From NCBI GenBank assembly GCA_001790525.1, contig MGCU01000023.1, positions 5,659 through 69,658 on the forward strand: DNA of 64,000 nucleotides, in the 5' to 3' direction. The position numbers and the translations under genes are program-made. Below the pieces are notes generated by a model. It did no database searches. It saw only the letters and a list, made by a program, of their open reading frames with translations, and was not told the DNA's origin. Below, one piece after another: positions 1-60,191 of this stretch. The stretch is from Candidatus Saccharibacteria bacterium RIFCSPHIGHO2_12_FULL_47_16b. GTDB lineage: Bacteria; Patescibacteriota; Saccharimonadia; Saccharimonadales; UBA10212. Every line of letters begins with the position of its first letter. The first letter of the stretch is position 1.

Positions 1-121
1 TGGTCGCCTCCTTAATTGGCTCCTTACTGCGGTTATGGGCAATGACTTGATGGTTGTCCTCGGCCAGCTTTTGGGTAATTTGGGTGCCCATTCGACCAAG
101 ACCAGCTATAGCTATCTTCAC
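1..121 (-). CDS. gnd: 6-phosphogluconate dehydrogenase, 5' part (runs off window)
   Basis: Hand translation from GTG 121: MKIAIAGLGRMGTQITQKLAEDNHQVIAHNRS, Rossmann GxGxMG; follows pgl-like gene. Confidence 0.75.
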   Translation of the reverse strand, partial: MKIAIAGLGRMGTQITQKLAEDNHQVIAHNRSKEPIKEAT

Positions 122-288
122 GACACGCCTCCTAGCGTCGGCTTAAATTCTAAGTTCGAATTTCTAATTTCTAAACAATTATCAAATTCTAAGCACCAAA
201 TTCTAAATATTTGGGAATTAGAACTTAGATATTCGGATTTGTTTAGGATTTCGATATTAGATATTAGAAATTGGAGTAATGTAATCAC
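118..288 (-). other. Bridge mini-ORF/heptamer palindrome 1 (pgl to gnd), 56 aa
   Basis: GTG overlaps pgl TGA; MITLLQFLISNIEILNKSEY...EFKPTLGGVS*; TGA overlaps gnd GTG. Confidence 0.75.
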
Positions 289-956
289 GACGGCTCCCCT
301 CTGTAATCATTATATATGGTTAGTTTTTTGGCTGTCTTTAAGACTTGGGCTGGTTGTTTGTTTGGAGGGATGTCTTCATCGACAATTTGATCAATCAGCG
401 ACCATTTCTCTCGGCCAACCATATAGACGACTGCTTCATCCAAGTTAGTAAGCGAGCCAAGGGTCATAGTTATGCGTTGGAAATCCGCGGCCTGATAGCC
501 AACTACCAACTCTTGTGAATCAATGCCGATACTGCCGGGCATAACACCCAGCGTGTGTCCATCGGCGCCAATGCCAATGCAGGCAATTTTAAAATCGCAG
601 CTGGCAAATTCTTGCTTTAAGTACGCCGCAAAATCGGCAGTGGTTGAAGCGAAATCCTTATTTTCTAAGACCGGACGAAACTTGGCGCCGCTTAAGCTGA
701 AACCGGCATTGACTAATTTCTGCCAGTTAGAATCTGGATGTCCAATCGGCCCAAAACGCTCATCGGTTAAGCTGACAGTTAAATTCTGGACGTTTTGGCT
801 TTGGAGTCTTTTGGCTGTCTCAATTTGAATCGGCGTCAAAGAACCACCAGATAGTAGCCATAAAACCTTTGCACCGGCCGTCAATCTTTTAGCAATGGCC
901 TCATTTAAATAATCGACGACTACTTCACTACTGCCAATCTTTTGGAAACTGATCAC
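285..956 (-). CDS. pgl: 6-phosphogluconolactonase / glucosamine-6P isomerase family
   Basis: LSGGS, DER, SN, GIGADGHT, RIT motifs. Confidence 0.8.
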   Translation of the reverse strand: MISFQKIGSSEVVVDYLNEAIAKRLTAGAKVLWLLSGGSLTPIQIETAKRLQSQNVQNLTVSLTDERFGPIGHPDSNWQKLVNAGFSLSGAKFRPVLENKDFASTTADFAAYLKQEFASCDFKIACIGIGADGHTLGVMPGSIGIDSQELVVGYQAADFQRITMTLGSLTNLDEAVVYMVGREKWSLIDQIVDEDIPPNKQPAQVLKTAKKLTIYNDYRGEPS

Positions 957-1036
957 TTGCCTCGATTATACAGAAGTCACGTATTCCATGTGCTTGCATT
1001 TGAGTGCAGCGCAAATCTTTTTAAGACTTATCATAT

Positions 1037-1135
1037 TTGGGTGCGGTACAAGGAAGAAGCGAGCAACGAACTGAGATGTATACAGATATACTTTGAAGGA
1101 GTAGCGTAGCTTCTGACGATGTAATGCGTCAAAGA
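1037..1135 (+). repeat. Class II ~100-bp hairpin repeat, copy 1
   Basis: Shares GTACAAGGAAGA...TGTAT-loop-ATAC...GAAGGAGTA...CTGACG..GTAATGCG with 20732-20833 (-). Confidence 0.7.
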
Positions 1136-1153
1136 TGTAAGTCGTCTGGAAAT

Positions 1154-1186
1154 GAAAAGGCGCCCTTGTTTAAGGGGCGTCTTTTC
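1154..1186. terminator. Hairpin terminator downstream of pyrE
   Basis: GAAAAGGCGCCCTT-GTTT-AAGGGGCGTCTTTTC. Confidence 0.55.
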
Positions 1187-1299
1187 TACAGTTTGGCTAC
1201 CGAAGTAGTTACGCTGTAGCCACCTCACGATGGCACATTACAATTTACGCCCAGTCGAAATAGCAGTCAATAACTTCTGCTGTGTATAAATGTTGTAGT

Positions 1300-1899
1300 T
1301 TATGCCTGGTTGTCAGCAAGAAACTTTTTAACCTTATCAAGTACCTTATGTGTAATAGCTTTTTCGGCCAGCAAAACATCAAGGGCTTCTCCCAAGGTAA
1401 AGACGGCATACAAGTTGTAGCCTCTTTCAGCCAGATTTTTTTTGGCTCCCTGCTCACGATCTAATAGAACTACAACGTCATTAACTTTCAATCCTTCTGA
1501 TTCAAACGGCTGAATAACCTCAAACTTGGAAGCGCCAGTCGTAACCATGTCATCTATCAAAACCACTGTTTCCCCAGGCTTATACTCTCCTTCGATTGGT
1601 TTCTTGATGCCGTGATCTTTGATCTCTTTGCGGGTGTAAATCCATGGTCGGTTGCTTACGAGCGATATGGCAGCCGTAATCGGCAGCGCGGTATATGGCA
1701 CAGCTCCCATCCTATCGAATTTCAATTTTGCCAAAATATCGCTATAGACCTTGGCTACTTTGCGCATAGTTGCCGGATAAGAAACTAGAACTCGTAAATC
1801 AATATAAATTGGTGAAACCAACCCGCTCTTAAGCGTGAACTGGCCAAACTTTATGACGCCGATGGAATTAAGCTCAATGATTAAATCTTTATGCTCCAT
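1300..1899 (-). CDS. pyrE: Orotate phosphoribosyltransferase
   Basis: [27 protein letters not shown] motif. Confidence 0.93.
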
Positions 1900-2629
1900 T
1901 GATTACTCCCTTGATGTCATCAATAATTTTAGCGAAAGCGGTTGCCGGGTCGCTAGCTTGAGTGATCTCTCGGCCGATGACCAGTAAATCAGCACCGGCG
2001 GCAATTGTTTCGGCTGGCGTAGCGACCCTGGCCTGATCAACCGTTTGAACACGGGTCGAACGTGCGCCAGGGATCATGGTCAAGAGGTTCTTGGTCTTTT
2101 CGTTTTGTTTGATCATACTAACTTCCTGTGGTGAAGCGACAATGCCGGCTAAGCCGGCCGTCGCCGCTGACTGCGCCAGTTCCAATACTTTTTCTTTAGC
2201 CGTGGAGCCATAAATACGCTGACACTCTTCATCACTTAGAGATGTTAAAACAGTGACTCCAAATATCTTAACTTGCCCGGCTTTGGCTTGGGCTCCTAGC
2301 ATGGCTTGATGACCGGCTGTGGTGTGAATTGTAATAGCATATGGTGAGTGGGTCAGTTTAACTAAACTGGCCACGCTGGCTGAAGTTGTATTTGGAATAT
2401 CATCCAATTTGGCATCTGCCACCCAGTCTAATTGATGCTTTTTGGCTAGCTTGGCGCACCATTGCCAGCTCTTGGCCGTGGCTAGCTGTAAACCGAACTT
2501 GATATAGATTGCTCCTGCTGATTTGGCCAACTCGGCAAGTTTTTCAGCCTCTGCTGCATTGGCAGTATCAATCGCCAATATAATTCTATTGGCCACCTCG
2601 TGCTTACTTTGAAAAGTCGGCATTGTCAC
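1889..2629 (-). CDS. pyrF: Orotidine-5'-phosphate decarboxylase (ATG 2623 alternative start)
   Basis: [24 protein letters not shown]. Confidence 0.93.
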
Positions 2630-2647
2630 TTAGTATAGTAAGAAGTT

Positions 2648-3745: not shown

Positions 3746-3790
3746 AAAAATTGTTGTTTGATAAAAATCAAACTGTTACACTACTGCTAG

Positions 3791-5504: not shown

Positions 5505-5541
5505 TTATTTTAATGCTGGGCAAGCAAAACCCTGTGCCTTA

Positions 5542-6652: not shown

Positions 6653-6664
6653 AGTATACTAGAC

Positions 6665-6835
6665 ATGAACAGGTTCATGCATTTACAATTTACCATTTAC
6701 CATTTATCATTAATTTCCCATTTGTCATTTACCAAACAAACTGCAACTGATATCTGTAAATTGCTAAATGATAAATCATTGAGAATTGAAAAATGTGAAT
6801 TGATAATTGCGCCGACACAAGGAGGCGCGGTGTGA
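6665..6835 (+). other. Bridge mini-ORF 2 (before GT4), 56 aa
   Basis: MNRFMHLQFTIYHLSLISHLSFTKQ...CELIIAPTQGGAV*; ATG 4 nt after TATACT; TGA overlaps GT4 GTG. Confidence 0.75.
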
Positions 6836-8079
6836 AGATCGGGTTGGTCTGTCCCTATAATATGTTCGATAGAACTGGCGGTGTCCAACAGGTTGTCCAG
6901 CACCTCCACGATGGTCTGACCAAAAAAGGTCACATCGTCAAAATTATTACCCCAAAGCCACCGGGCTTTAAAAATGAGGCGCCAGATGACTACATTATTT
7001 TAGGCTCAACCACCAATTTTACAGCCGGTTTTGGTGCCGCCGGCAACTGGGGCTTGCCTACCGATAGTAAGGAAATGGCCCAAATTTTAAAAAAAGAAAA
7101 ATTCGACGTTATTAACTTCCATGAACCCTGGGCACCGTTACTGGCCTGGCAAATGATCAGACAAACTAAAGCGGCCTTTGTGGGCACCTTTCATGCCAAC
7201 TTATTCGATAGGCCGTCAACCTCTTCCTGGGTTAATGTGTTTACACCTTACGCTCGGAATTTGGGCAAGCGTTTGCACGTTATAACCGCTGTCTCACCGG
7301 CGCCAGCTGCCCTAATGATTCAAAAAGCTCAAACTAGTTTTGAGAAAAGAATGGTTGCCGATATTAAGTACATTCCTAACGGTGTTGACCTTAATATTTA
7401 TAAACCATTCAAAAAACGCCTGCCGCTTAACGGCCCAGACACTAAAACTGTTCTTTATGTTGGCCGGCTAGACAGGCGAAAAAATGTTGAAGCTTTAATA
7501 AGAGCCTTTGCTTTAGTTGAGGCTAAAATGCCCAAGGCCTACTTAAATATCGCTGGTGAAGGTTCCAGGCGCGGTAGTCTGGATCAACTGGCTAAAACTT
7601 TAGGCATTAAAAACATTCATTTTAGCGGTTATGTTAACGAAGACGAAAAGCGACGTTTAATGGGTAATGCTGACGTTTTTTGTAGCCCCGCGATCGTTGG
7701 TGAAAGTTTTGGCATAGTCTTGATTGAAGCCATGGCAATGGGTTGTCCGGTAGTGGCTGGTAGAAATTCCGGCTACATTCATGTTTTGACCAATACCGGT
7801 AGAGTCGGCCTAGTTGATCCTAAAGCGACCGAGGACTTTGCCGAACGTTTGATGGTTATAATAAGCGACGGCAAACTAAGTAGTACGCTTCGGGCCTGGG
7901 GCTTAGCCGAAGTTAAAAAGTTTGATTACACCAAAATAATTGATCAATATGAAAAGACCTATATGGAGGCTTATATCAAGTGGCGGATAGAGCAGCATCT
8001 TAACGGTGTTAATAGCAAGAATGCAAAGAAATTCTGGAAAACTAAGCGTCGCTTTCCTTTACGACGATTCTTTAGATAG
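6832..8079 (+). CDS. Glycosyltransferase family 4 (PimA-like)
   Basis: MKIGLVCPY, GGVQ, HEP, ESFGIVLIEAMA. Confidence 0.9.
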   Translation: MKIGLVCPYNMFDRTGGVQQVVQHLHDGLTKKGHIVKIITPKPPGFKNEAPDDYIILGSTTNFTAGFGAAGNWGLPTDSKEMAQILKKEKFDVINFHEPWAPLLAWQMIRQTKAAFVGTFHANLFDRPSTSSWVNVFTPYARNLGKRLHVITAVSPAPAALMIQKAQTSFEKRMVADIKYIPNGVDLNIYKPFKKRLPLNGPDTKTVLYVGRLDRRKNVEALIRAFALVEAKMPKAYLNIAGEGSRRGSLDQLAKTLGIKNIHFSGYVNEDEKRRLMGNADVFCSPAIVGESFGIVLIEAMAMGCPVVAGRNSGYIHVLTNTGRVGLVDPKATEDFAERLMVIISDGKLSSTLRAWGLAEVKKFDYTKIIDQYEKTYMEAYIKWRIEQHLNGVNSKNAKKFWKTKRRFPLRRFFR

Positions 8080-13298: not shown

Positions 13299-13591
13299 AG
13301 CCCCAATCCGCTTAAGGCGCCCATCATCGGTTTCATCTTTTCGGCTGCAAGTTGCTGCGATTTAGTAATAGCTTCTTTAACTGCGTCTTCCAACCACATC
13401 TCAAGTTGTTCAATGTCATCAAGATTGACCCTCTCTGGGTCGATGTCGATTCTTTTAATTTTCTGTTCACCGGAAATTTCGATTCTGACAGCCCCGTCAC
13501 CGGCTTCGACTGTAATAATTTCCCGCTGTAACTCTTTTTGTAGTTTACGAGCCTTCATTAGCAATTTCGCCTGGTCGAATTTAGTCACCAT
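13295..13591 (-). CDS. ybaB: YbaB/EbfC nucleoid-associated protein
   Basis: Size, AGDGAV motif, position upstream of recR. Confidence 0.85.
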   Translation of the reverse strand: MVTKFDQAKLLMKARKLQKELQREIITVEAGDGAVRIEISGEQKIKRIDIDPERVNLDDIEQLEMWLEDAVKEAITKSQQLAAEKMKPMMGALSGLGL

Positions 13592-13680
13592 ATACTCCTT
13601 TTAGTCGCTCGATTAACAAAAAACAAAGAACAATAAACAAAAATGATTGTTGCTTATTGCTGATTGCTCATTGTCATCAT
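13585..13680 (-). pseudogene. Bridge element 3 with one in-frame TAA
   Basis: MMTMSNQQ*ATIIFVYCSLFFVNRATKRSIW*; both ends overlap the neighbouring genes. Confidence 0.6.
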
Positions 13681-14875: not shown

Positions 14876-16237
14876 TTAGGTTTCGAAAGGTTCTTCGTGC
14901 TTAGTGTCTAAATCTCGTATCTGCTGTCTAACACGGTCGAAATAGACTTCCAAGTTAGCCACCGGACCATTGCGGTGCTTCTTGACCATTAGATCCATAA
15001 TGTTTTGCCGTCCGGTATCTGGGTTATAGTACTCTTCGCGGTATAAAAAGACGACTATGTCAGCATCCTGCTCAATTGAACCCGATTCGCGCAAGTCGGC
15101 CAGTTGCGGTATTTGCGGGCTTCGGCTTTCAACGGAGCGAGAAAGCTGAGAAGCTGCCACTACCGGAACATTTAATTCTCGGGCTAGGATTTTCAAACTC
15201 CGGCTGATCTCGGAAATCTCTTGGACGCGGTTGGCCACCGTCGCAAAGCGCGATCCGCCACTCATCAGCTGTAAATAATCAACCATAATGACCGAAAGGG
15301 GGTGCTGATGATGCAACCGCCGGGCTTTAGTTCGAAGGTCCGATACTGTAATGCCAGAAGTATCATCAATGTATACAGGCGCTTCCGCTAGCTCGCCCAT
15401 AGCAGTGCTTAACTTTTCAAAATCACTATCAGTTAAACCGTCGCCGGTCCGCAGTTTCCAAGCATCGACTCCAGCTTGAGCTGCCAGCAAGCGATCAACC
15501 AACTGCTCCTTACTCATTTCCAGGCTAAAATATAGTACTGTGCCATGTTCAGCTTGGGTGGCAATGTTAAGTGCCATATTAAGCATCAAGGCGGTTTTAC
15601 CCATTGATGGTCGGGCGGCAATCACGTCAAGATCAGACCGTTGTAGGCCAGCCAGCAATTTATCGAGATCGCGCATTCCGGTTGCCAGGCCGCGCAATCG
15701 GCCTTTGTGGCGATGCAGATCATCTAACCTATCAAAACTTTCGCCTAGGATTGATTCCAACGGTGTTATGTCTTGTTTGACACTGCGTTGGGAGACTTCG
15801 AATAGACGAGCTTCGGCTTCTTCGATTAACTCCTGCAGGCTTTTGCCCTCTTGTTGACTGATATTAGCGATTGACTCCGAGGCCTCAATTAGCCGCCGTC
15901 GGATTGATTTTTCGGCCACGATTTCAGCATAGTGTTCGACGTGCGATGAGGTTGGCACAAAGTTAGTCAGTTCGGTCAAGTAACCGGCGCCACCGACATC
16001 ATCTAAATCGCCATTACTTTTAAGTTGCTCGGATAAGGTTAAGATGTCAATTGGTCGGTGTTTTTCGAAAAGTTTACGCATCGAAGCGAAAATTCGTCGG
16101 TGCTGCTCATTAAAAAAATCTTCGGCTTTTATCGAATCAGCAATTTTAATAAAAGCTTCGCTATCGATTATTAAACTACCAAGTAAGCTGGCTTCAGCGT
16201 CAGCACTTTGCGGAACGGATGTTTTTTTAGCGTCCAT
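14876..16237 (-). CDS. dnaB: Replicative DNA helicase
   Basis: AARPSMGKT, DYLQL, DLRESGSIEQDAD; ATG 16237. Confidence 0.97.
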   Translation of the reverse strand: MDAKKTSVPQSADAEASLLGSLIIDSEAFIKIADSIKAEDFFNEQHRRIFASMRKLFEKHRPIDILTLSEQLKSNGDLDDVGGAGYLTELTNFVPTSSHVEHYAEIVAEKSIRRRLIEASESIANISQQEGKSLQELIEEAEARLFEVSQRSVKQDITPLESILGESFDRLDDLHRHKGRLRGLATGMRDLDKLLAGLQRSDLDVIAARPSMGKTALMLNMALNIATQAEHGTVLYFSLEMSKEQLVDRLLAAQAGVDAWKLRTGDGLTDSDFEKLSTAMGELAEAPVYIDDTSGITVSDLRTKARRLHHQHPLSVIMVDYLQLMSGGSRFATVANRVQEISEISRSLKILARELNVPVVAASQLSRSVESRSPQIPQLADLRESGSIEQDADIVVFLYREEYYNPDTGRQNIMDLMVKKHRNGPVANLEVYFDRVRQQIRDLDTKHEEPFET

Positions 16238-16347
16238 CAGACGCACCTTTCGGGCTTAATTCTCAGTTTACAATTTACAGTTTTCATTATTTTTTCATTG
16301 ATAATTGAACATTGATCATAGATCATTGTGAATTGGAGAAATTTCAT
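16237..16347 (-). other. Bridge mini-ORF 4 (dnaX to dnaB), 36 aa
   Basis: MKFLQFTMIYDQCSIINEKIMKTVNCKLRIKPERCV*; ATG 5 nt after dnaX TAG; TGATG overlap with dnaB. Confidence 0.75.
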
Positions 16348-38828: not shown

Positions 38829-38962
38829 CAGACGTTCTCTCCGGTCGCTTCAAACCCTAAGTTCGAAGTTCTAAACTCTAAAGTTTGGTAATTGGAATTT
38901 AGGATTTGGAAATTGTTTAGAAATTCGGGTTTAGAAATTAGGTATTGGAATGTCGAAGGCAT
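38828..38962 (-). other. Bridge mini-ORF 11 (rpmJ to rpsM), 44 aa
   Basis: MPSTFQYLISKPEFLNNF...GFEATGENV*; TGATG overlap. Confidence 0.78.
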
Positions 38963-38965: not shown

Positions 38966-39082
38966 TTAACCTTGCCTCTGTTTATTACGAGGTTTCTTTT
39001 TATTAATCACATAAACTCGGCCTTTGCGACGAACAATGATGTCGCTTGGGCTGATTTTTTTTACGCTAGCACGCACCTTCAT
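38966..39082 (-). CDS. rpmJ: 50S ribosomal protein L36 (Cys-free form; not in ORF track)
   Basis: [38 protein letters not shown]. Confidence 0.95.
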
Positions 39083-42454: not shown

Positions 42455-43003
42455 TTACGCCGCTGTTGCCTCCTTGCCGCTCTTACCACTTTTACGGATA
42501 ATCTGTTCACCCTCGTAGCTTATTCCCTTGCCTTTGTATGGTTCAGGCTTTTTAAAGGCTCGAATCTCGGCCGCCACCTGACCCACTTTTTGCTTGTCGG
42601 CGCCGCTGACGGTAATAATATTTTGATCAACAGATAGACTTACACCCTCCGGAATTTTATAAATAACATCATGTGATAAGCCTAGGTTCATTTTAAGGTC
42701 AGTGCCTGATAATTGGCTACGGTAACCAACTCCACTTAATTCAAGTTTTATGTCATAACCTTGGCTGACGCCGGCAATCATATTTTTAAGTAGCGAACGC
42801 ATGAGACCGTGCTTGGCTCTGGTAATCGCTGTCTCATTTTGGCGATTAACTTGCAATTGATTATCCTTAACCGTTACTGTTATGTCGGCCAGCTTGGCTT
42901 GCTTAAGTTTACCTTTTAGTCCTTCAATATAAATAAAGTCTTTATCTACGATTACAGACACGCCAGGCGGTACAGCAATTGGTTGTTTACCGATACGACT
43001 CAC
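42455..43003 (-). CDS. rplF: 50S ribosomal protein L6
   Basis: MSRIGK from GTG 43003; PEPYKGKGI. Confidence 0.96.
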   Translation of the reverse strand: MSRIGKQPIAVPPGVSVIVDKDFIYIEGLKGKLKQAKLADITVTVKDNQLQVNRQNETAITRAKHGLMRSLLKNMIAGVSQGYDIKLELSGVGYRSQLSGTDLKMNLGLSHDVIYKIPEGVSLSVDQNIITVSGADKQKVGQVAAEIRAFKKPEPYKGKGISYEGEQIIRKSGKSGKEATAA

Positions 43004-43239
43004 AGAAGGCACCTCCGGTGCTCAATTATCAATTCACAATTATCCCCACACCAAAAACTTGAAGCTCCATAATCTGATTGCAGACTACTCCGCTCAGGTT
43101 TTGGTGCAGGGTAAGCAATGCTCAATGAATTATCAATTAGCAATTTGCAACTACTGGCTGCAGTTTGTTTGATAAATGACAAATGAGAAATTAATGGTAA
43201 ATGGTAAATGGTAAATGGTAAATGGAATGATGGAGTCAT
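43000..43239 (-). other. Bridge mini-ORF 12 (rpsH to rplF), 79 aa, with nested 72-bp element
   Basis: MTPSFHLPFTIYHLP...CELIIEHRRCLL*; GTGA overlap. Confidence 0.78.
43045..43116 (-). mobile_element. 72-bp element, copy 2
   Basis: 24-codon insert relative to homologous bridge 2. Confidence 0.75.
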
Positions 43240-43241: not shown

Positions 43242-43631
43242 CTAGTAGACCTCGCAAATTAATTCGCCGCCAATACCCTTTTTTCTAGCAGCCAAGCCGC
43301 TCATGATGCCTTGGGAAGTTGATAAAACTACTATACCGCGGCCAGCTTTGATGCTTGGAATCTCCGAGGCTTTAACATAATGGCGCCGGCCTGGGCGACT
43401 GACTCGTTTAAGTTCTGTTATAAGCGGCGACTGATCTAGTCCGTAAAGGAGAATTTGCAACTCTTTTCGATCATCCACTTGATTTGCCTTAACACTCGCC
43501 AAAAAGCCACTTTGTACTAAAACTTGAGCTACATCGTGCTTGATTTTTGAATGTGGCAAATTAACTTCATTTTTGCCGGTTGCCAAGGCGTTGCGAATTC
43601 GTGCTAACATATCGGCGATTGGATCAGTCAT
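43242..43631 (-). CDS. rpsH: 30S ribosomal protein S8
   Basis: TDPIADML.RIRNA, SRPGRR, GGEL. Confidence 0.96.
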   Translation of the reverse strand: MTDPIADMLARIRNALATGKNEVNLPHSKIKHDVAQVLVQSGFLASVKANQVDDRKELQILLYGLDQSPLITELKRVSRPGRRHYVKASEIPSIKAGRGIVVLSTSQGIMSGLAARKKGIGGELICEVY

Positions 43632-43723
43632 ACGCCACTCCTTTCAGTCGCTCTAGAAACTAGGAAATAGGAAATAGGAAATAGTGATTTTACTAATTTC
43701 TGATTACTAATTTCTAATTTCAT
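43628..43723 (-). other. Bridge mini-ORF 13 (rpsN to rpsH), 31 aa
   Basis: MKLEISNQKLVKSLFPISYFLVSRATERSGV*; ATGA overlap. Confidence 0.78.
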
Positions 43724-43728: not shown

Positions 43729-43998
43729 TTACCAGCTGCTTTTAGTTACACCCGGTATTTCGCCTTTGGCAGCATGTTCTCTAAAAGCAATCCGGCTTAA
43801 ACCAAACTGACGCATATAACCACGGGGCCGGCCAGTTTCAGCGCAGCGGTTTTTACGACGAGTCGGCGACGAATTACGGGGTAGTTTGGCTAAGCCAGCA
43901 TAATCACCAATAGCCTTGAGCTGGGCTCTTTTAGCAGAGTATTTTTCAATCAGTTGCAAACGCTTAGCATCGCGGGCCAGATTTGATTTTTGGGCCAT
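43729..43998 (-). CDS. rpsN: 30S ribosomal protein S14 (89-aa form)
   Basis: LPRNSSP, RC..TGRPRG, GVTKSSW. Confidence 0.96.
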
Positions 43999-44240
43999 CA
44001 GGCAACTCCTTCCGTCGTTGCAATTATCAATTCACAATTATCAATTTTCAACGATTTATCAAATATCAATTTACAGATTAAAGCAGAGGTTGCAGCTAGT
44101 TTGGTAAATGGTAAATGAGAAATTAATGGTAAATGCCTGCCCCGCATCAAATCCTGAGCGGAGTAGTCTGCAATCAGATTATGCAGCATCAAGATTTGGT
44201 GCCGGGGGTAAATGGTAAATGGTAAATGGAGCAATTTCAT
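43998..44240 (-). other. Bridge mini-ORF 14 (rplE to rpsN), 80 aa, with nested 72-bp element
   Basis: ATGA overlap with rplE; TGATG overlap with rpsN. Confidence 0.78.
44136..44207 (+). mobile_element. 72-bp element, copy 3 (opposite orientation to copy 2)
   Basis: 24-codon insert between TIY and HLP of the bridge. Confidence 0.75.
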
Positions 44241-45150: not shown

Positions 45151-45521
45151 TACAGTACCTCCGGCGCCAGTGAAGCAATTTTAGAAAAACCCTTTCGGCG
45201 AAGCTCGCGTGGGACTGGGCCAAAAATACGAGTGCCTCTTGGCGACCGGCTATCTTCGGCTAGCAAGACAGCGGCATTATCATCAAAGCGGATTATCGAG
45301 CCGTCTTTGCGCTTAATCGGGCTGCGGGTTCTGACAATAACGGCTTTGACTACACTTTTGCGCTTGACGCCACCAGTTGGGTTGGCCGTCTTAACGCTAG
45401 CTACTATCAGGTCGCCGACGCCACCATAGCGACGACCACTGCCGCCAAGAACTCGTATACAAAGAAGCTCGCGAGCACCGCTGTTATCAGCAGCGATTAA
45501 GCGGCTCTGTTGCTGTATCAT
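45150..45521 (-). CDS. rplN: 50S ribosomal protein L14
   Basis: MIQ from ATG 45521; [19 protein letters not shown]. Confidence 0.96.
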
Positions 45522-45577
45522 AAAGCTCCTTTCTGCCGCAGTAGTGAGTAGACAGTAGTGAGTAGTAAGTAATTCAC
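45518..45577 (-). other. Bridge mini-ORF 15 (rpsQ to rplN), 19 aa
   Basis: [19 protein letters not shown]; GTGA and ATGA overlaps; CTACTCA heptamers. Confidence 0.65.
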
Positions 45578-46053
45578 TTTTTAGACTCCTTCGGTGAACT
45601 TTTTTCGGAAAGTTGGTCCTTGCTTGCTGGCTTAGCATTTTGTTTGTCTTTTACTGTCGCCTGCCTGCTGTCCACTGGTTTCTGTCCAGTCTCTTCTGGA
45701 CTCTGGACTCGGGACTCTGGACTCTTTGCCTTAAGCTTCGGTTGGGGCTGTTGCTTTTTTGTAAGTTCTTCAATTGGCACATCGGCAGTAACGTCAGTTT
45801 CTTTATAGCCAATGCGAGCTTTATCGACAATTTTTTCCAGAACAAAATGCTTACGAGCACTTAATGGTCGGCTTTCACGAATAATAACTTTATCGCCAGT
45901 TTTAGCTTCGTTCTTCTCGTCATGGGCCATAAGCTTTTTACTAACGGAATACCGCTTCTTGTAAACAGGATGCGTCTTAGCAGAAGTCACCATAACGACG
46001 ATGCTTTTATCATTCTTATCACTCACTACCATACCTAAAATTAAGCGGGCCAT
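45574..46053 (-). CDS. rpsQ: 30S ribosomal protein S17 with long C-terminal extension
   Basis: VVSDK.DK, HPVYKK, AHDE, SRPLS. Confidence 0.95.
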
Positions 46054-46253: not shown

Positions 46254-46669
46254 TAGGCCACCTCTTTAGCCAGAAATTCAGTTTGGACCGGTAATTTATG
46301 GCCAGCTAGGCGCATTGCCTCACGGGCGATCTCTTCGCTAACGCCATCCATTTCAAACAAAACCGTACCGGGTTTAACCTTGGCCACGAAAAACTCTGGG
46401 TTACCCTTACCGCTGCCCATCTTGACGTCTTGTGGTTTACGAGTAACTGGCGTATGCGGAAAGATACGAATCCAAATTGAGCCGCCGCGCTTGACATAGC
46501 GAGTCATGGCTTGTCTGGCAGACTCGATTTGACTGGCGCTTATCCTATCGGAGTCCAAACTGATAAGGCCGTATCGGCCATAAGCTAGCTCATTTATCGA
46601 AGTGGCTCGGCCGCCATGAATACGCCCTTTCCTTACTTTTCGGTACTTGGAACGTGATGGCATTAGCAT
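46253..46669 (-). CDS. rplP: 50S ribosomal protein L16
   Basis: MLMP from ATG 46669; WIRIFP, MGSGKG. Confidence 0.96.
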   Translation of the reverse strand: MLMPSRSKYRKVRKGRIHGGRATSINELAYGRYGLISLDSDRISASQIESARQAMTRYVKRGGSIWIRIFPHTPVTRKPQDVKMGSGKGNPEFFVAKVKPGTVLFEMDGVSEEIAREAMRLAGHKLPVQTEFLAKEVA

Positions 46670-46836
46670 ACGCACCTCCGGTGCTCAATTACCAATTCAC
46701 AATTTACATTTTTCAATAAGTTTTCATTTATCAATTTATAAATAGAAAATAAGTCTGCAGCCAGTTTGTTAAATGACAAATGCAAAATAAATGGTAAATG
46801 GTTAATGGAAAATGGAAAATGGAATGACGCAGTCAC
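46663..46836 (-). other. Bridge mini-ORF 16 (rpsC to rplP), 57 aa
   Basis: GTG overlaps rpsC TGA; MTASFHFPFSINHLP...VIEHRRCVC*; stop inside the rplP start. Confidence 0.78.
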
Positions 46837-47465
46837 GATAACTCCCCCCGATATATCCAAACCTTCACGCCAATTAGTCCAGCGCCTGGGTAAAGGGCGC
46901 TGGCTTTAGCAAAATCAACATCAGCTCTAATAGTATGAAGCGGCACGCTACCTTGAACTTCCTTCTCGCGTCGGCTCATCTCGGTACCGCCCAGTCGGCC
47001 GGAGACTTCAATCCGAACTCCTTTAGCTCCGGCGCGCATGGATGATGCCGCTGCAGCTTTGACAGCTCGCCGAAACATAATTCTTTTTTCAAGCTGATGA
47101 GCAATATTCTCAGCCACCAATTTGGCCTGCAATTCCGGTCGTTTAATCTCTTCGATGTTGACCCTAACCGGAACTTTAAAGATCTTTTCAATCGCCTGCT
47201 TTAGTTCAGTTGCGCCGGTACCGCCTCGACCTATTACTACACCAGCTTTTGCGGTCTGTAGGGTGACAGTTACAAGATTGGGCGAGCGCTCAATGTCAAT
47301 TTTACTAACAGCCGCCCGCGAGCCAAGTTTAACTTCAATCAGCTTGCGAGCAGCTAGGTCTTGCCGCAAAAACTGGGCATAATCCTTTTTAGAGGCAAAC
47401 CATTTACTGCGCCAGTCTTTAGTGAGCGGTAAACGCATGTTGATTGGGTTAACCTTCTGCCCCAT
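46833..47465 (-). CDS. rpsC: 30S ribosomal protein S3
   Basis: MGQKVNP, GVVIGRGG, GRLGG, VPLHT. Confidence 0.97.
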   Translation of the reverse strand: MGQKVNPINMRLPLTKDWRSKWFASKKDYAQFLRQDLAARKLIEVKLGSRAAVSKIDIERSPNLVTVTLQTAKAGVVIGRGGTGATELKQAIEKIFKVPVRVNIEEIKRPELQAKLVAENIAHQLEKRIMFRRAVKAAAASSMRAGAKGVRIEVSGRLGGTEMSRREKEVQGSVPLHTIRADVDFAKASALYPGAGLIGVKVWIYRGELS

Positions 47466-47587
47466 CAGACGCTCCTCCCAGTCGCTTCAAGCTCTAAACT
47501 CGAAGCTCGAAACCCTAAAATTCGGAATTTAGAACTTAGTGTTTGGGATTTGTTTAGAAATTCGGGTTTAGAAATTAGAGTTTCCAT
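47465..47587 (-). other. Bridge mini-ORF 17 (rplV to rpsC), 40 aa
   Basis: TAATG and TGATG overlaps; [15 protein letters not shown]...LEATGRSV*. Confidence 0.8.
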
Positions 47588-47967
47588 TATTTAACTTTCT
47601 TTGTATGTTCGGACGATGGCTTTTTAACAACTCTCTTTTCTCCGTCAACTAACACTTTGATGTGGCTAGTTTTATGCTGGTATGGCAAAGCTCGGCCTCG
47701 GGCCGCTGGTCGGTATCGTTTAAGACGTAAACCAGCGCCAACTGTTATTTGGCTAATGTATAGGCTATCCGGCTTGTAGTTGTGATCGTGCACGGCATTG
47801 GCTCTAGCGCTAACAATAACTTTTTTTATGGTAACGGCCGCTCGCCGAGGCGTATGCTCTAGGATGGTAATAGCGTCATTGACAGATCGGCCACGTACCA
47901 AAGAGGCCACTAGTGCGGCCTTGCGCGGACTAACTCGAGCGCTACGATATTCGGCTTTAACTGGCAT
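47587..47967 (-). CDS. rplV: 50S ribosomal protein L22
   Basis: SPRK, SARANA, PAARGRA, TSHI. Confidence 0.95.
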
Positions 47968-48376
47968 CGGTTTGGCCTTCCTCTGGTTGAGCTGTTACAC
48001 CTTCGGCTGATTCTTCCTTAGCCGCCTCCGGTTTGGCAGCTTCAGCTTTACCGGTTTTACCAGCCTCGGTAGCTGGTGCAGCTGTCTTCATCGCTTCGGC
48101 TTCTTCTAGGCTCTTGGCTAGTTTGCCGCCGTGAACCTTAAACTTTCGAGTTGGGGCAAATTCACCTAGCTTGTGACCGACCATATTTTCTGTAATAAAG
48201 ACCGGTATATGGACTTTGCCATTATGTACGGCAATAGTTCGCCCAACGAATTCCGGCGGAATCGATGAAGCTCGAGCCCAGGTTTTGACAGCTGTTCGGT
48301 CGTCGGCCGACATAGCGGCTATCTTTTTGGCCAGCTTAAAATCAATAAACGGCCCTTTTTTGAGCGATCTACCCAT
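47957..48376 (-). CDS. rpsS: 30S ribosomal protein S19 with C-terminal extension
   Basis: [23 protein letters not shown]. Confidence 0.96.
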
Positions 48377-49559: not shown

Positions 49560-50215
49560 TTACTAGCCTCCCTAACGGTGGTTTTTTGACCAAGCCAAGC
49601 ATGGATAATTTCCACGGCTTTTTTGGATAAAACAATACTGTCTGCATTTAGCACATCAAAGACTGTCAAATAATTGGCGGCTACCGCTTGGACGTTGTCC
49701 AAATTCCTGGTAGCTCTATCAACTAACTCGTCCTTTTGTGAAACTACCAATAAGACCGAGCCTTTGGTGCCGATTTTCTGTAGCAGACTAATGGTTGGCT
49801 TAACTTGGCCGCTGGAACAATCGAAAGTTTCGATAACGCTAATTTTGTCGGAATTTGCGGCTAGGCTTAGAGCTTGACGCAACGCTTGGCGTTTAGTCTT
49901 GAGACCGATTTTACGCTGATAATTTTCGTAGCCAGTTGGACCAAAGGCCACACCGCCACCCCGCCAAATCGGGTTACGTCTGGAACCAAAACGCGCCTGT
50001 CCAGTACCCTTTTGGCGCCACGGTTTACGGCCGCCGCCGCGGACTTCGCCCCGTCTTTTAGTTTTAGCCAAGTTTGTTCTACCGCTCGATTGATAAGCCA
50101 GATAAGCATCCTGTAAAAGCTGATGGTTAATGTCGGTCTGACCAAATATAGACTTATCAAGCTTGGCTTCCGTCTCGGCTTTAGTGCCAGTTTTAGTATA
50201 GGTCGGTACCGCCAT
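49556..50215 (-). CDS. rplD: 50S ribosomal protein L4
   Basis: [23 protein letters not shown]. Confidence 0.96.
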
Positions 50216-50340
50216 CAGGCGCTCCTTCCAGTTGCTTCAAGCTCTAAGTTCGAAGTTCTAAGCTCTAAATTTTGGTATTTAAAACTTCGAGTTTGGTATT
50301 TGTTTAGAGTTTCGAGTTTAGGAATTAAAGCTTTCTTCAT
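50215..50340 (-). other. Bridge mini-ORF 18 (rplC to rplD), 41 aa
   Basis: ATGA and TGATG overlaps; MKKALIPKLETLNKYQ...LEATGRSA*. Confidence 0.8.
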
Positions 50341-51712: not shown

Positions 51713-52135
51713 ATGCAGATTTATAGAGATGGTGATTCATATGTCGTTGTTCTAAAACTAGGCGAAGAGCTGTTTGAATCCCTGACTAATTTTGTTAAAC
51801 AAAATGAACTAAAGTCTGCTTGGTTTGATGGCCTTGGCGCCGCCAAAGAAGTTGAGCTTGGTTATTACCGGCTAGACGATAAGCAGTACTCCTGGAAAAC
51901 TTTTGTCGGACCATTAGAGATTACCGGTTTGCACGGTAACATGGTTTTAAAAGATGGCCAGCCAGTCTTTCACGCCCATGGTTCCTTCGCCGACGGATCT
52001 TATAAGGTCATTGGCGGTCATATAAAAAGACTTATGGTCGCCGGCACCTGTGAAATTTTGGTTTCAAAACTCAATTTAGCTCTGACTCGTAAGTTTGACG
52101 ATGAAGTCGGTCTCGAGCTACTTGAAACGAATTAA
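51713..52135 (+). CDS. PPC domain (DUF296) protein
   Basis: GLGA, LEI..L.GN, HAHG, GGH, TCE; ATG 51713. Confidence 0.88.
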   Translation: MQIYRDGDSYVVVLKLGEELFESLTNFVKQNELKSAWFDGLGAAKEVELGYYRLDDKQYSWKTFVGPLEITGLHGNMVLKDGQPVFHAHGSFADGSYKVIGGHIKRLMVAGTCEILVSKLNLALTRKFDDEVGLELLETN

Positions 52136-52266
52136 CCTAATTAACCTAATTTCTAATTAACCTAAATAATGACCTAATGTGCCAATGACTTAATGAGTAA
52201 AGTTTGGGATTAGGGTTTTGAATTTGTTTAGAGCAATTAGAACAATTAGTGCAATTAGAAATTTAA
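52132..52266. repeat. AT-rich palindromic repeat with ~9-nt period between convergent genes
   Basis: TTAACCTAA units facing CAATTAG units; no coupled mini-ORF. Confidence 0.65.
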
Positions 52267-54639: not shown

Positions 54640-55638
54640 TTACGAAATTTCGTCCGGCTTTCTACCAGGCGTGCTATAATCACCGACCGGATGGATTATT
54701 GCGTATGGACCTAAGTCGAAATCTCCAAGCGAATTACTCATTGAGTCTCCAGGACCAAGGTCATAATGATCGACTACTCCTCTGTTGCGCGCGTAATTTA
54801 CACACCCAGTTAGATTAGTTGGTTTGGTCGTTTGCAGGACTAAGTTATTGATTATCGTCTTAGCGCGTCGCATGGGCCTAGCCGTCCTTGTCGCAATAAT
54901 TTCTAAAGTGCTATCTTTGACGCCACCTTCCCTTAGGATTTCGTCCATCATGTAAGCCAATTTTTCTTCAGTAGCTTTTACAAATTTACCGTGAGGCGGA
55001 AACGGCAAGTTATCCAACGCAATCACCCTTCTGACACCAGGAATATCCTCAAGCGCTGCCTTTAATGCAACTTTTTCCTCATTGACATATGTCACCATAG
55101 TTTTAAAAGGTGTGTGTTCACCTCCTAGATGCGAATTCTCAAATTCTTTTACAGTTTTTTTAATAGTGTGTTTCAATCTTTTTGGAGGTGCACTCCGATC
55201 GTGTATGACAACAAAACCCCCGCCCTTTCCGCCAGCTTCTTCTACCTGTGAGCGACCTCTTTCATACGCAGTTATAGCCGCATCACGAAGTGAAATCGCT
55301 CCACCGATAGCAGCCGCCGTGAACTCCCCGGAACTAACGCCTATAAGGTAATCAGTAAAAATCCCACATTCATTGAGTGCTTTGGCGCGGGCGTATCCAA
55401 CTCCGACATTGACCGCTTGGATCACCGCAGGGTCGGTAACGGCTATTTCGCTTCGGCAAACATCAATCACATCTACGCCCGTAGCTATTCCAATTTCTTC
55501 ATAGATTCTGTGTGTTTCCGAGCCCTCTGATAAAAGATCTTGGCCGTCTTTAAAGCTTTTTATGCCTTGGCCTGGAGCATAAAAGGCTATTCTGCGCTTA
55601 ACGGGCGGAGAAGTGAACTCCGCCACTCTACTTGACAT
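54640..55638 (-). CDS. FabD-like acyltransferase (malonyl-CoA:ACP transacylase fold)
   Basis: APGQG, IQ, GVSSGEFTAA, RG, PH, LGPG motifs. Confidence 0.7.
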   Translation of the reverse strand: MSSRVAEFTSPPVKRRIAFYAPGQGIKSFKDGQDLLSEGSETHRIYEEIGIATGVDVIDVCRSEIAVTDPAVIQAVNVGVGYARAKALNECGIFTDYLIGVSSGEFTAAAIGGAISLRDAAITAYERGRSQVEEAGGKGGGFVVIHDRSAPPKRLKHTIKKTVKEFENSHLGGEHTPFKTMVTYVNEEKVALKAALEDIPGVRRVIALDNLPFPPHGKFVKATEEKLAYMMDEILREGGVKDSTLEIIATRTARPMRRAKTIINNLVLQTTKPTNLTGCVNYARNRGVVDHYDLGPGDSMSNSLGDFDLGPYAIIHPVGDYSTPGRKPDEIS

Positions 55639-55653
55639 ACTTTTATTATAGCA

Positions 55654-56424
55654 TTATTTGCCAGATTTGGCAAAATCGGCTGCCACATTTCTGACTGGAT
55701 CAGTTAGTGAGGGCAAAATCAAGCTACACTTACGAAAGCTTGCGATTTTCTGAGCCCGCTGGTGGTGAGGGGTTAAGGGGTCTACAACTATTAGATTGGT
55801 TTCTTCTGGCTGAGTTTGATTTAAATTAACGTAGCCTACCGCTAATACAACGTGCTCTGGTAAGTCCATGCTTAATACGCTGCCTCTTGATAACTCTGTC
55901 AGAGCAACTCTAGCCAAATCTTCCCCGGCGAATTGAACATCGTAATAAGAAAAGTCAGCATCAGGAACGATTTCTTCAAAGTGTTCGCTAATCGCCAAAT
56001 TGCCAATTTTTACAACTTGATTTGATAGGATCAGTAGTTCAGCGTCGTTAAAGTATGACCTCAGCTCATCAGTCAAACTAGCATTAACGCGCTCGGCCGT
56101 TACCTGACTTATCTGCCCTTGCCAAAGCATGGCATTAAGTTGATTTGTGTTAACGCAGCTATGTATATCATTATTCTTGCTGTGTTGAGCTAATGGTGTT
56201 ATTTCGGCTGCCGGCTCTATATAATGCGTGACCGATAGATCAGTCATGCCTAATTCGTGTGAGCGGTATAGGAATAAAAGATAAGCCGCCCTTGATCTTT
56301 CCTCTTCCCAAATTTGACCGAGGGTCCTTGTAACAAGTGTCTCAGGACCAATCGTAATAGCTGGCTTGGGACCTACAATAATTGGCGCCTTTCGTCCAGC
56401 GGGCCTAAAACGAGGGTCTTCCAT
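55654..56424 (-). CDS. Hypothetical protein whose C-terminus copies the fusA end
   Basis: 256-aa ORF; SC / HVVLAVGY / VDP suggest a C39-like peptidase (weak); ends NVAADFAKSGK. Confidence 0.6.
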   Translation of the reverse strand: MEDPRFRPAGRKAPIIVGPKPAITIGPETLVTRTLGQIWEEERSRAAYLLFLYRSHELGMTDLSVTHYIEPAAEITPLAQHSKNNDIHSCVNTNQLNAMLWQGQISQVTAERVNASLTDELRSYFNDAELLILSNQVVKIGNLAISEHFEEIVPDADFSYYDVQFAGEDLARVALTELSRGSVLSMDLPEHVVLAVGYVNLNQTQPEETNLIVVDPLTPHHQRAQKIASFRKCSLILPSLTDPVRNVAADFAKSGK

Positions 56425-56439
56425 AAGAGATACTATAAA

Positions 56440-58527: not shown

Positions 58528-58532
58528 ACTAG

Positions 58533-58985
58533 TTATATCTCTATAGTTCTATCGATTATTTTACGGCTCATCCTTGAAGCTGCTTTTTGCACTGCTTCGT
58601 CATGTCGCGTCTTACGCTCCTCAATCTCAGCAACAGGTTGTTTTGATAAATTTTTTCTCTCTAATAACATTTGTACGGCAAGGCATTTTTTTGGTCTTTC
58701 GCCGATAGCCGGCATAAGGCAACCTTGCATGGCTTCAGCAACTTCTTCTGGAGTTGCATCTTTAGAAGATAATCCTAGATCTATTCGAGATATAAGTCTT
58801 CGCGAGCTCAGAGCGACTATCGCCAATCGTTCTGTGTTTGATGAGAAACCTTGAGCTATACTCTGCCACGAACCGGATTGCTTCATATACTTATCGATTT
58901 CATAGCCTAGCGGAGAATTTCCCAGTCTCCTTCTGAAGACACATCGGGCACAAGGCTCCACCATAATTCTTTCGGCGCCTATCAT
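58533..58985 (-). CDS. Hypothetical protein
   Basis: 150-aa ORF with CxxC between rpsG and fusA. Confidence 0.5.
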
Positions 58986-58988
58986 AAT

Positions 58989-59066
58989 TTAAGACCTCGC
59001 AAAGTGGGCCCCTCGACTACGCTCGGGGTTCATTTTACTTTTATTATTTCGTAACTCTTGACTCAT
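58989..59066 (-). other. Possible additional bridge mini-ORF, 25 aa
   Basis: GAGTAAA-type heptamers plus a REP; MSQELRNNKSKMNPERSRGAHFARS*; stop 3 nt before the next ATG. Confidence 0.4.
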
Positions 59067-59086
59067 TACTCTTTACTCCAGGGCGT

Positions 59087-59566
59087 TTATGATCTTGCAA
59101 AATGAGCAAATGCCCTATTGGCTTCGGCCATTTTATGAACATCTTCTTTTTTCTTAACGGCTGCGCCGGTGCCGTTGTAAGCATCGACCAGTTCGGCAGT
59201 AATTCGTTTTTCCATGGGCATGCCTTTACGATCGCGGGCGGCGGCCACAAACCACATTATTGTTAGGTGTTGCTGACGCTGGCCTTTAACTTCAACCGGA
59301 ATTTGGTAATTAGCGCCGCCGATCCGCCGAGCCCTAGTCTCAAGATGAGGTTGGATATTGGCAAAACCTTTTTCCAGTACCTCCAGCGGGTTATCAACTT
59401 TTAATTTATCTGCAGCCTGTTGCATGCCGCCGTAGACTAGTCGTTCGGCCAGTTGCTTTTTGCCGTTTAACATCACTCGATTAATTAGTTTACTTACCAG
59501 TTTGCTGTTATATAGACGATCTGGCTCAACATCGCGCACCAAAGATTTTGTAGTCTTACGCGGCAC
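59087..59566 (-). CDS. rpsG: 30S ribosomal protein S7
   Basis: GKK..AE, RRIGGANYQIP, MAEANRAFAH. Confidence 0.97.
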   Translation of the reverse strand: MPRKTTKSLVRDVEPDRLYNSKLVSKLINRVMLNGKKQLAERLVYGGMQQAADKLKVDNPLEVLEKGFANIQPHLETRARRIGGANYQIPVEVKGQRQQHLTIMWFVAAARDRKGMPMEKRITAELVDAYNGTGAAVKKKEDVHKMAEANRAFAHFARS

Positions 59567-59663
59567 GGTGACCTCCGGTCAGAGTAACTAGAAAATAGGA
59601 ACTAGGAAATAGTAAAGCTAATTCCTGATTGCTAATTACTAATTTCTTAAAAATGCGTAGCAT
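59556..59663 (-). other. Bridge mini-ORF 19 (rpsL to rpsG), 35 aa
   Basis: MLRIFKKLVISNQELALLFPSSYFLVTLTGGHRAA*; ATG 2 nt after TAA; stop inside the rpsG start. Confidence 0.78.
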
Positions 59664-59665
59664 TT

Positions 59666-60076
59666 TTATTTACCCTTCTTGACGCCGTACTTACTGCGGC
59701 CTTTTTTACGATCCTGAACACCTTGCAGATCCAGATGGCCGCGGACAATGTGATAACGCACGCCGGGCAAGTCCTTAACTCGACCACCTCGAACTAATAC
59801 CACGGCGTGCTCCTGTAAATTATGCCCTTCACCGCCAATATAAGCCCAAACTTCATGGCCGTTAGTTAAACGCACACGGGCGACCTTACGCAGCGCCGAG
59901 TTTGGTTTTTTAGGAGTCTTGGTGGTAACCCGAATACAAACGCCGCGTTTAAACGGCGACGGTTTTTCATAACTTTTGGTTTTAAGGTTGTTAACCACGC
60001 GCTGCAGCGCCGGCGATTTGGTTTTGGCTTTGGCCGATTTACGAGGCTTCTTAACAAGTTGATTAATGGTTGGCAT
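59666..60076 (-). CDS. rpsL: 30S ribosomal protein S12
   Basis: MPTINQLV from ATG 60076; [11 protein letters not shown]. Confidence 0.97.
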
Positions 60077-60191
60077 CAGACGCTCCCTTCGGTCGCTCAA
60101 ACAACAAAAAGCAAAAATCAAAAATCAAACTTTGGAATTTGAAATTTGAATTTTTTTTGAAGTTTGAAGTTTGGAGTTTGGAGTTTATCAC
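60063..60191 (-). other. Bridge mini-ORF 20 (rpoC to rpsL), 42 aa
   Basis: GTG overlaps rpoC TGA; MINSKLQTSNF...[12 protein letters not shown]; stop 14 nt into rpsL. Confidence 0.72.

Follow-up and report, generated by a model that had tools for sequence, protein, structure and literature searches.

In a 64,000-nucleotide (nt) stretch of a Candidatus Saccharibacteria genome (positions 5659-69658 of contig C23 of genome G000, which is 95% complete and comprises 793,886 bases in 29 contigs), hereafter the window, 20 intergenic spacers are filled by repeats with a 7-nt period and are associated with short open reading frames (mini-ORFs). Comparison of these spacers within the genome and between related genomes makes it probable that they are lineage-specific, imperfectly palindromic elements of 7-nt units that were inserted at the stop/start junctions of operons and are likely tolerated there by means of a stop-free relay ORF that preserves translational coupling. 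The original prediction, made from the letters of the stretch, had offered two readings, namely a dispersed element that colonises operon junctions while preserving coupling, and a domesticated relay that regulates ribosomal protein expression. The first is borne out by empty and filled sites, a patchy distribution, stop avoidance confined to the sense strand and to co-oriented genes, and docking at both ends, whereas the second fares poorly, as the elements also lie between non-ribosomal genes and are absent from the same-genus genome G001 at most of these junctions and from the sisters of heavily filled genomes.

The predicted periodicity was recovered by Tandem Repeats Finder (TRF), which returned at least one row of period 7 or period 14 in 20/20 spacers; of the 58 TRF rows in the window, 47 fall inside them. 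Genome-wide, one and the same detector found 159 arrays of period 7, and 2, 3, 0, 3, 0, and 0 arrays of periods 5, 6, 8, 9, 10, and 11, respectively. The elements are AT-rich and consist of 7-nt units in two inverted, imperfect arms. Their description as mostly palindromic thus stands for the inversion of the arms but not for their perfection, and RNA folds at least 2 standard deviations below mononucleotide shuffles were obtained for only 9/20, with folds at or above the shuffle mean in 2/20; long-range pairing of the arms features in most predicted folds. Among spacers of 40-260 nt, arrays are found in 63/271 between co-oriented genes versus 12/123 between divergent or convergent genes (Fisher p = 0.0014).

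On the gene-sense strand the predicted frames are open in 19 of the 20 spacers, the exception (13585-13680) containing a single TAA. The sense strand of the 20 ORFs contains 185 stop triplets, with 1 in frame, 107 in the +1 frame, and 77 in the +2 frame, versus an expectation of one third in frame (binomial p about 3e-31); the corresponding antisense counts are 90/41/61. As a 7-nt unit visits all three frames within 21 nt, arrays whose units bear a stop remain open only if the unit that falls in frame is a stop-free variant. In the spacer at 24271-24372, heptamers bearing TAG recur at every third unit, out of frame. A perfect palindrome would leave both strands equally open, and the asymmetry between sense and antisense is therefore a signal in itself.

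A comparison with shuffled spacers, which the original prediction had proposed as a check, was made genome-wide on the 63 co-oriented spacers of 40-260 nt that carry an array, using gene calls from our own crude ORF picker (866 ORFs of at least 70 codons, covering 82% of the genome). This revealed that 49/63 are open end to end on the sense strand, versus 10.7 expected after permutation of 7-nt blocks. The antisense frame is open in 10/63, and array-bearing spacers between divergent or convergent genes are open in 2/12 (binomial and Fisher p values for these comparisons of 5e-26, 2e-12, and 1e-4). In 40 of the 49 open spacers, the open frame overlaps the upstream stop by one base. When two related genomes, G021 (397 kb) and G012 (400 kb), were run through the same pipeline, 20 kb at a time, 17/20 spacers were open in G021 (2 antisense; 5.8 expected) and 7/10 in G012 (2 antisense; 3.0 expected).

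The docking of the mini-ORFs on their neighbours was likewise recovered. The start overlaps the upstream stop or lies 1-5 nt past it in 18/20, with ten overlapping (nine as ATGA or GTGA and one as TAATG) and eight lying 1-5 nt after; the remaining two, at 6665 and 31016, lie 12 nt and 18 nt away. At the other end, the stop overlaps the next start by 1-14 nt in 18/20 and probably in 19, the spacer at 118-288 ending in GTGA with its downstream gene off the window, and that at 30894 ending 10 nt before the next start. According to the junction sequences, the element supplies both a strong downstream Shine-Dalgarno (SD) sequence and the stop that overlaps the next start, and the mini-ORF start occupies the site beside the upstream stop that the start of the downstream gene holds in genomes where the junction is empty.

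Reading frames matter to translation alone, and translation of the mini-ORFs therefore best accounts for a stop avoidance that keeps in phase with the upstream stop and the downstream start. We infer from these patterns that the mini-ORFs are translated, that selection preserves reinitiation, and that the elements spread as selfish DNA. A ribosome ending the upstream gene would reinitiate at the adjacent mini-ORF start, read through both arms of the element, terminate on the downstream start, and reinitiate there, and only copies that preserve coupling would survive in operons.

Empty and filled junctions in related genomes

The same junctions had been proposed for comparison as empty versus filled sites, and 33 genes of the region were located by tblastn in 21 relatives (22 genomes with G000). 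Most of the 21 relatives show overlaps of -1/-4 or gaps of less than 20 nt where G000 is filled. The number of filled junctions is 12 in G000 (rpoC to L17), 16 in G021, 9 in G012, and 9 in G034, those of G034 being mostly non-heptamer inserts. The same-genus genome G001 is empty at 9/10 of the G000-filled junctions covered by its contig, and it has three spacers of 40-400 nt, with an array in only one and a docked ORF in only one. In a FastTree phylogeny built from 24 concatenated proteins (4,110 columns, midpoint-rooted), G021, G012, and G034 each stand beside a genome with 0-1 filled junctions, and G000 stands beside G001. Empty close relatives and empty sisters of filled genomes point to lineage-specific gains, or precise losses, rather than to a conserved device, and a distribution this patchy and recent leads us to regard the elements as selfish DNA, or at any rate as non-essential.

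Ten relatives have spacers of 40-400 nt at the ribosomal-protein junctions. Of these spacers, 35/48 carry an ORF docked at both ends, with its start at between -4 and +9 nt relative to the upstream stop and its end 1-16 nt past the downstream start; several of the remaining 13 are short or have frames continuous with the downstream gene. One and the same junction is filled by different element families in different genomes. At the S3-L16 junction, similar families that share a 5' motif and arms of the CCATTTA type are present in G000 (46663-46836), L113 (G021), and L117 (G012).

The inserts at the junctions of G034 (L126) are mostly not heptamer-built, and several have a conserved segment in common. 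Their sense frame is open in 9/9, but their antisense frame is also open in 8/9, unlike that of the heptamer elements. In a metagenome scan with the 16-nt motif from the 5' end, 80 of the 81 sequences examined among the matches listed had no 7-nt periodic sequence after the motif; the one with 7-nt periodicity there has an ORF of only 8 codons.

The twenty spacers and their surroundings

The minus-strand genes of the window, as assigned by Pfam, are secE-nusG-rplK-rplA, rpoC-rpsL-rpsG-fusA-tuf, and the S10-spc-alpha cluster to rpoA and rplQ. The spacers are as follows, in window coordinates, with "upstream" and "downstream" taken along the gene-sense strand and mini-ORF lengths in amino acids (aa).

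118-288, minus strand: bridge mini-ORF of 56 aa, open, downstream of a 6-phosphogluconolactonase-like gene (285-956); its GTG and the upstream TGA share a 4-nt overlap; arrays of period 7 occupy 144-174 and 253-272.
6665-6835, plus strand: bridge mini-ORF of 56 aa upstream of a glycosyltransferase gene (6832-8079), open on plus and closed on minus; ATG 12 nt past the upstream stop, within a 6-bp hairpin that holds the start codon; its TGA overlaps the GTG start of the gene (GTGA).
13585-13680, minus strand: repeat spacer between a PMT_2-like gene and ybaB, with a frame broken by one TAA and docked at both ends.
16237-16347, minus strand: mini-ORF of 36 aa, dnaX-like gene to dnaB, open; ATG 5 nt after TAG, TGATG downstream.
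23604-23735, minus strand: mini-ORF of 43 aa, nusG to rplK (L11), open; GTGA upstream, stop ending 8 nt past the L11 ATG.
24271-24372, minus strand: mini-ORF of 33 aa, secE to nusG, open; ATGA upstream, GTGA downstream.
30894-31016, minus strand: repeat-derived ORF of 40 aa between a holB-like gene and a TPR gene, open and undocked; start 18 nt after the upstream stop, end 10 nt before the next start.
36018-36182, minus strand: mini-ORF of 54 aa, rpoA to rplQ (L17), open; ATG 2 nt after TAG in the start hairpin ATGAC-TGC-GTCAT, GTGA downstream; junction empty in G001.
37762-37863, minus strand: mini-ORF of 33 aa, rpsK (S11) to rpsD (S4), open; ATG 2 nt after TAG, TGATG downstream; junction empty in G001.
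38315-38440, minus strand: mini-ORF of 41 aa, rpsM (S13) to rpsK (S11), open; ATG 1 nt after TAA, TAG ending 7 nt past the S11 ATG.
38828-38962, minus strand: mini-ORF of 44 aa, L36-like 38-aa ORF to rpsM (S13), open; ATG 3 nt after the stop of ORF 38966-39082, TGATG downstream.
43000-43239, minus strand: mini-ORF of 79 aa, rpsH (S8) to rplF (L6), open, with a nested insert and no Pfam family; ATG 2 nt after TAG, GTGA downstream; junction empty in G001.
43628-43723, minus strand: mini-ORF of 31 aa, rpsN (S14) to rpsH (S8), open; ATG 5 nt after TAA, ATGA downstream.
43998-44240, minus strand: mini-ORF of 80 aa, rplE (L5) to rpsN (S14), open, with a nested insert and no Pfam family; ATGA upstream, TGATG downstream.
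45518-45577, minus strand: short mini-ORF of 19 aa, rpsQ (S17) to rplN (L14), open; GTGA upstream, ATGA downstream; the 52-nt spacer is open in all three sense frames.
46663-46836, minus strand: mini-ORF of 57 aa, rpsC (S3) to rplP (L16), open; GTGA upstream, TAA ending 7 nt past the ATG; junction empty in G001.
47465-47587, minus strand: mini-ORF of 40 aa, rplV (L22) to rpsC (S3), open; TAATG upstream, TGATG downstream; junction empty in G001.
50215-50340, minus strand: mini-ORF of 41 aa, rplC (L3) to rplD (L4), open; ATGA upstream, TGATG downstream.
59556-59663, minus strand: mini-ORF of 35 aa, rpsL (S12) to rpsG (S7), open; ATG 2 nt after TAA, 7-bp start-codon hairpin, stop ending 11 nt past the GTG start.
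60063-60191, minus strand: mini-ORF of 42 aa, rpoC to rpsL (S12), open; GTGA upstream, stop ending 14 nt past the S12 ATG.

Two of the bridges hold a further insert and their ORFs nevertheless remain open.

43044-43111, strand unassigned: hairpin of about 70 nt nested in the S8-L6 bridge, abutting TTAC on the sense strand.
44135-44207, strand unassigned: second copy of this hairpin insert, about 70 nt, nested in the L5-S14 bridge, inverted relative to the first and following the TTAC of a CCATTTA array (sense strand).

In G001 the nested insert is present in many copies, which lie in both orientations, and in G000 it has 7-8 matches. The peptide subfamilies that had been named (FTIYHL..CELII, ISKPEFLN..LEAT, and ISNQEL..FPSSYFLV) are present in the translations. 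In the spacer with the broken frame (13585-13680), the opposite strand has a fully open mirror frame of 32 codons.

Small hairpins recur at both ends of the elements, with start codons enclosed as ATGAC-NNN-GTCAT or AATGC-NNN-GCATT in some families, and with a small stem around the SD sequence at many 3' ends, such as GCACC-GGA-GGTGC. Sequestration of the SD sequence by the 3' hairpin was considered and rejected, as the predicted unpaired probability of the SD core (0.40 versus 0.44 and 0.45 in two control groups) does not differ significantly. Sense-specific G:U pairing, suspected from one element, was also rejected, with mean minimum free energies of -30.1 for sense and -32.5 for antisense showing no asymmetry. 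An Rfam scan at the gathering cutoff returned five tRNAs and the L10 leader only, and no known RNA family for the elements.

Several further observations were made in and around the operons. The junction upstream of rpoC, beyond the right end of the window (C23:69656-69773 of G000; window 63998-64000 and beyond), is an array-bearing spacer of 118 nt with one open sense frame and sense stops of 6/4/0 by frame. Array regions also lie within long ORFs in 18/130 cases genome-wide, many of them near gene ends; in the window, a period-7 array of TCTGGAC (4.4 copies, 45695-45725) lies in frame within the C-terminal extension of S17, a protein of 159 aa whose Pfam domain spans residues 7-73. Long K/E/A-rich extensions that have no 7-nt periodicity are found in L1 (324 aa, 22209-23183), L7/L12 (200 aa, 18577-19179), and S19 (139 aa, 47957-48376). 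Downstream of the S10 gene there are two 9-nt tandem arrays, at 52130-52169 (AATTAACCT x4.7) and 52228-52260 (TTAGAACAA x3.7), which are of a repeat type other than the heptamers. The S10 gene is about 1.3 kb from that of L3, with a UPF0047 gene in between, and two ORFs lie between fusA and tuf (54640-56424), one of them weakly matching Acyl_transf_1, at a score under the Pfam cut-off.

The G+C content is 43-49%, and the nearest named records to the L2 protein come from an uncultured Candidatus Saccharibacteria metagenome-assembled genome (MAG; 67% identity) and a Patescibacteria MAG (61%). The metagenome runs that hold the stretch are from groundwater and soil. Pieces of Logan contigs from four runs, representing four samples and four studies, match the window exactly, with breaks at the repeats; among the Logan contigs, a single contig of low depth shows the sole spacer indel, a loss of 3 nt at 43652.

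Known repeats and candidate mobilising enzymes

Repeats in operons are known from mycobacterial interspersed repetitive units (MIRUs), for which the primary paper is said to be Supply et al. 1997, and from the short tandemly repeated repetitive (STRR) sequences of cyanobacteria. The claim that no such arrangement had been described is not upheld, as MIRUs (PMC12548453, PMC3184786) and the STRR hairpins between hupS and hupL (PMC2670836) are precedents. MIRUs are described as repeats between the cistrons of operons whose insertion likely leaves expression downstream little affected (PMC12548453), 40-100 bp in size and present in 40-50 copies, with empty and filled sites, tetranucleotide direct repeats, and ORF ends that overlap the adjacent genes (PMC3184786). 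On this account, the elements resemble MIRUs in being dispersed intercistronic repeats with empty and filled sites and an internal ORF docked on the flanking genes. Compared by description, they differ in that MIRUs are G+C-rich direct tandem units of 40-100 bp in Mycobacterium which form a chain of unit ORFs, while the elements described here are AT-rich, are composed of 7-nt units in two inverted arms, have one ORF each, and reside in Patescibacteria.

STRR sequences are described as usually 7-bp repeats able to form hairpins, for instance between hupS and hupL, which may raise transcript stability or confer translational coupling (PMC2670836). The likeness lies in the tandem 7-bp units and may extend to a hairpin between cistrons; the host phylum differs, and the comparison is one of descriptions rather than of unit sequences. 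No statement of a docked, stop-free ORF in STRR arrays was found in the literature. HIP1, another repeat that was looked for, has 0 occurrences in the 64-kb window.

Heptamer repeats near starts are also on record as TAACTGA direct repeats in Beggiatoaceae, Cyanobacteria, and Bacteroidetes, which lie just upstream of starts, including those of ribosomal-protein operons, and for which a translational role is proposed (PMC4679880). The elements share with them the tandem heptamer arrays near starts, but the TAACTGA repeats are direct repeats only and proposed protein-binding sites rather than relay ORFs. As the TAACTGA unit holds both TAA and TGA, its arrays are closed in every frame. In-frame fusion to genes is known for Rickettsia palindromic elements (RPEs) and other repeats (Ogata 2000 and others, cited in PMC3184786). 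RPEs are palindromic selfish DNA that survives in a coding context by staying translatable, which is also the reading favoured here for the elements. However, RPEs lie within genes and are translated as a segment of the protein, whereas the 20 elements are intergenic, each with a start and a stop of its own. No description of heptamer repeats in Saccharibacteria was found in the literature.

The elements also recall the system of repetitive extragenic palindromic (REP) sequences, their paired form (REPINs), and REP-associated tyrosine transposases (RAYTs), in being dispersed extragenic palindromes of two inverted halves in a genome that has Y1-transposase ORFs. REPs are G+C-rich stem-loops of about 35 bp that have no relay ORF. 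Three ORFs of G000 exceed the Pfam cut-off for Y1_Tnp; their best NCBIfam match, REP_Tyr_transpos, scores 39-43 bits against a cut-off of 80. These RAYT-like Y1-transposase ORFs are diverged paralogues of about 203-206 aa.

G000, C26:1306-1917: RAYT-like ORF.
G000, C2:6610-7230: RAYT-like ORF, followed by an element of 63-71 nt that is repeated on C2, C12, and C13.
G000, C25:24635-25246: RAYT-like ORF, flanked by a 24-nt inverted repeat.

The three genes have no flanks in common, and two of them are over 1 kb away from the nearest 7-nt arrays, while the third has none within 2.5 kb. Y1_Tnp matches were found in 14/41 related genomes, and in 6/7 genomes with at least three filled junctions versus 3/15 with at most one, in groups that were set post hoc and contain non-independent kin. 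The RAYT-like genes were not retained as the mobilising enzyme and are at most a lead, with matches below the cut-off, no flanking arrays, and a co-occurrence that is suggestive but confounded by kinship.

Going by analogy with these descriptions, the elements appear to work like MIRUs and to be built like STRR sequences, and they fall outside the unit size and arrangement of the former and the host range of the latter. The relay logic is already known; what is new is that it is heptamer-built, very dense, and found in a 0.8-Mb genome.

Alternative explanations and significance

A domesticated regulatory device, in which the hairpin and the relay ORF set the ratios between cistrons or stabilise or process the polycistronic mRNA and are kept for that function, is doubtful. 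It would suit the density of elements in the core operons, with 12 filled junctions from rpoC to L17, the strong SD sequences they carry, and the start-codon hairpins of some families, as mini-ORF starts lie within a hairpin of at least 4 bp in 13/46 cases versus 27/644 for ordinary gene starts; the suggested effect of cyanobacterial STRR hairpins on transcript stability or coupling, as stated in PMC2670836, is in keeping with it. However, such a device would not be expected to be missing from G001 at 9/10 comparable junctions, to be replaced by tight overlaps in most of the family, to be empty in the sisters of heavily filled genomes, or to be built from different element families at one junction across genomes. 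Nor are the elements specific to ribosomal genes; their RNA folds are only modestly stable, and a promoter or terminator function was rejected for want of any excess of matches over shuffles (19 vs 20.9 and 21 vs 19.3).

It is also conceivable, if unlikely, that the mini-ORFs are translated and no reinitiation follows, with ribosomes keeping the hairpin melted and so shielding the mRNA from cleavage or premature termination, and the downstream gene using its own SD sequence. The strength of the downstream SD sequences, predicted to be as accessible as elsewhere, and the open ORF at 30894-31016, which is docked at neither end, are what this account would predict, but docking of a stop on the next start (18-19/20 here and 35/48 in relatives) is unnecessary for melting. 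No terminator-like sites are predicted in the spacers, those on the minus strand all lying outside them. A search of the 95%-complete genome did not find the Rho RNA-binding domain PF07497, which makes Rho polarity an unlikely pressure and led us to reject it as the selective force.

A heritable tuning system is conceivable but improbable. As the unit measures 7 nt, gain or loss of one unit would shift the frame of the relay ORF and uncouple the downstream cistron, while three units would restore it, such that, in a 0.8-Mb genome for which the Rho RNA-binding domain was not detected, slippage-prone relay ORFs could reset the expression ratios of the core operons lineage by lineage.

That the mini-ORFs encode functional small proteins is very improbable. 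Their open frames of 19-80 codons have plausible starts and yield recognisable peptide subfamilies, but the 7-nt DNA repeat determines the peptides, which have a 7-residue periodicity, vary in length within families, and differ in presence between sister genomes. A conserved small protein was sought and rejected, with no homologue of 31-100 aa for the 57-aa ORF (46663-46836) in a set of 5.8 billion clusters and no Pfam family for the two longest ORFs (79 and 80 aa); the peptides are most likely by-products. The idea that open frames merely follow from repeat composition, which would apply to heptamers such as CCATTTA that are stop-free in every frame and whose arrays are therefore automatically open, or that they are an assembly artefact, can be set aside given the 184 out-of-frame stops versus 1 in frame, the rarity of open frames after block permutation, on the antisense strand, and in non-operonic contexts, the identical contigs in runs of four samples from four studies, and the recurrence of the pattern in other genomes.

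The reading of the elements as insertions tolerated through a relay ORF has several points weighing against it. The downstream genes carry strong SD sequences of their own, predicted to be as accessible as at other genes, so that downstream initiation may not depend on the relay, which weakens coupling as the selected trait. No mobilising enzyme has been tied to the elements. At the S3-L16 junction, filling in three genera with empty sisters cannot be explained by simple random insertion; possible causes are a preferred target, transfer, or precise loss that occurred repeatedly. The genome-wide numbers rest on gene calls from a crude ORF picker, and 14/63 spacers fail the strict test of openness; about 8 of these are mostly open and fail only at an end, often from boundary calls, and only about 5-6 look truly broken, such that frequent frameshifted "off" states were rejected. 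Finally, the copies are related by descent and the counts are not independent observations. For this reason the spacers were clustered by sequence, which resolved the 63 into 25 clusters, 19 of them majority-open despite widely differing lengths within clusters; judged on these sequences, the open frames are not explained by copying alone.

Taken together, our analysis suggests that even in a streamlined 0.8-Mb genome, the most conserved and most densely packed operon is open to invasion by selfish repeats, and that such insertions appear acceptable while a relay ORF keeps ribosomes moving. As the 7-nt unit cycles through the frames every 21 nt, the signature of stop avoidance is unusually clean (1 vs 184), and the elements thus offer a naturally occurring data set on the rules of termination-reinitiation and on how ribosomes deal with hairpins. 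Gene callers will miss such ORFs or will annotate the longest of them (79-80 aa) as hypothetical proteins. Thus, the elements extend the logic of MIRUs to a bacterium of the candidate phyla radiation, in a repeat architecture otherwise known from the STRR sequences of cyanobacteria.

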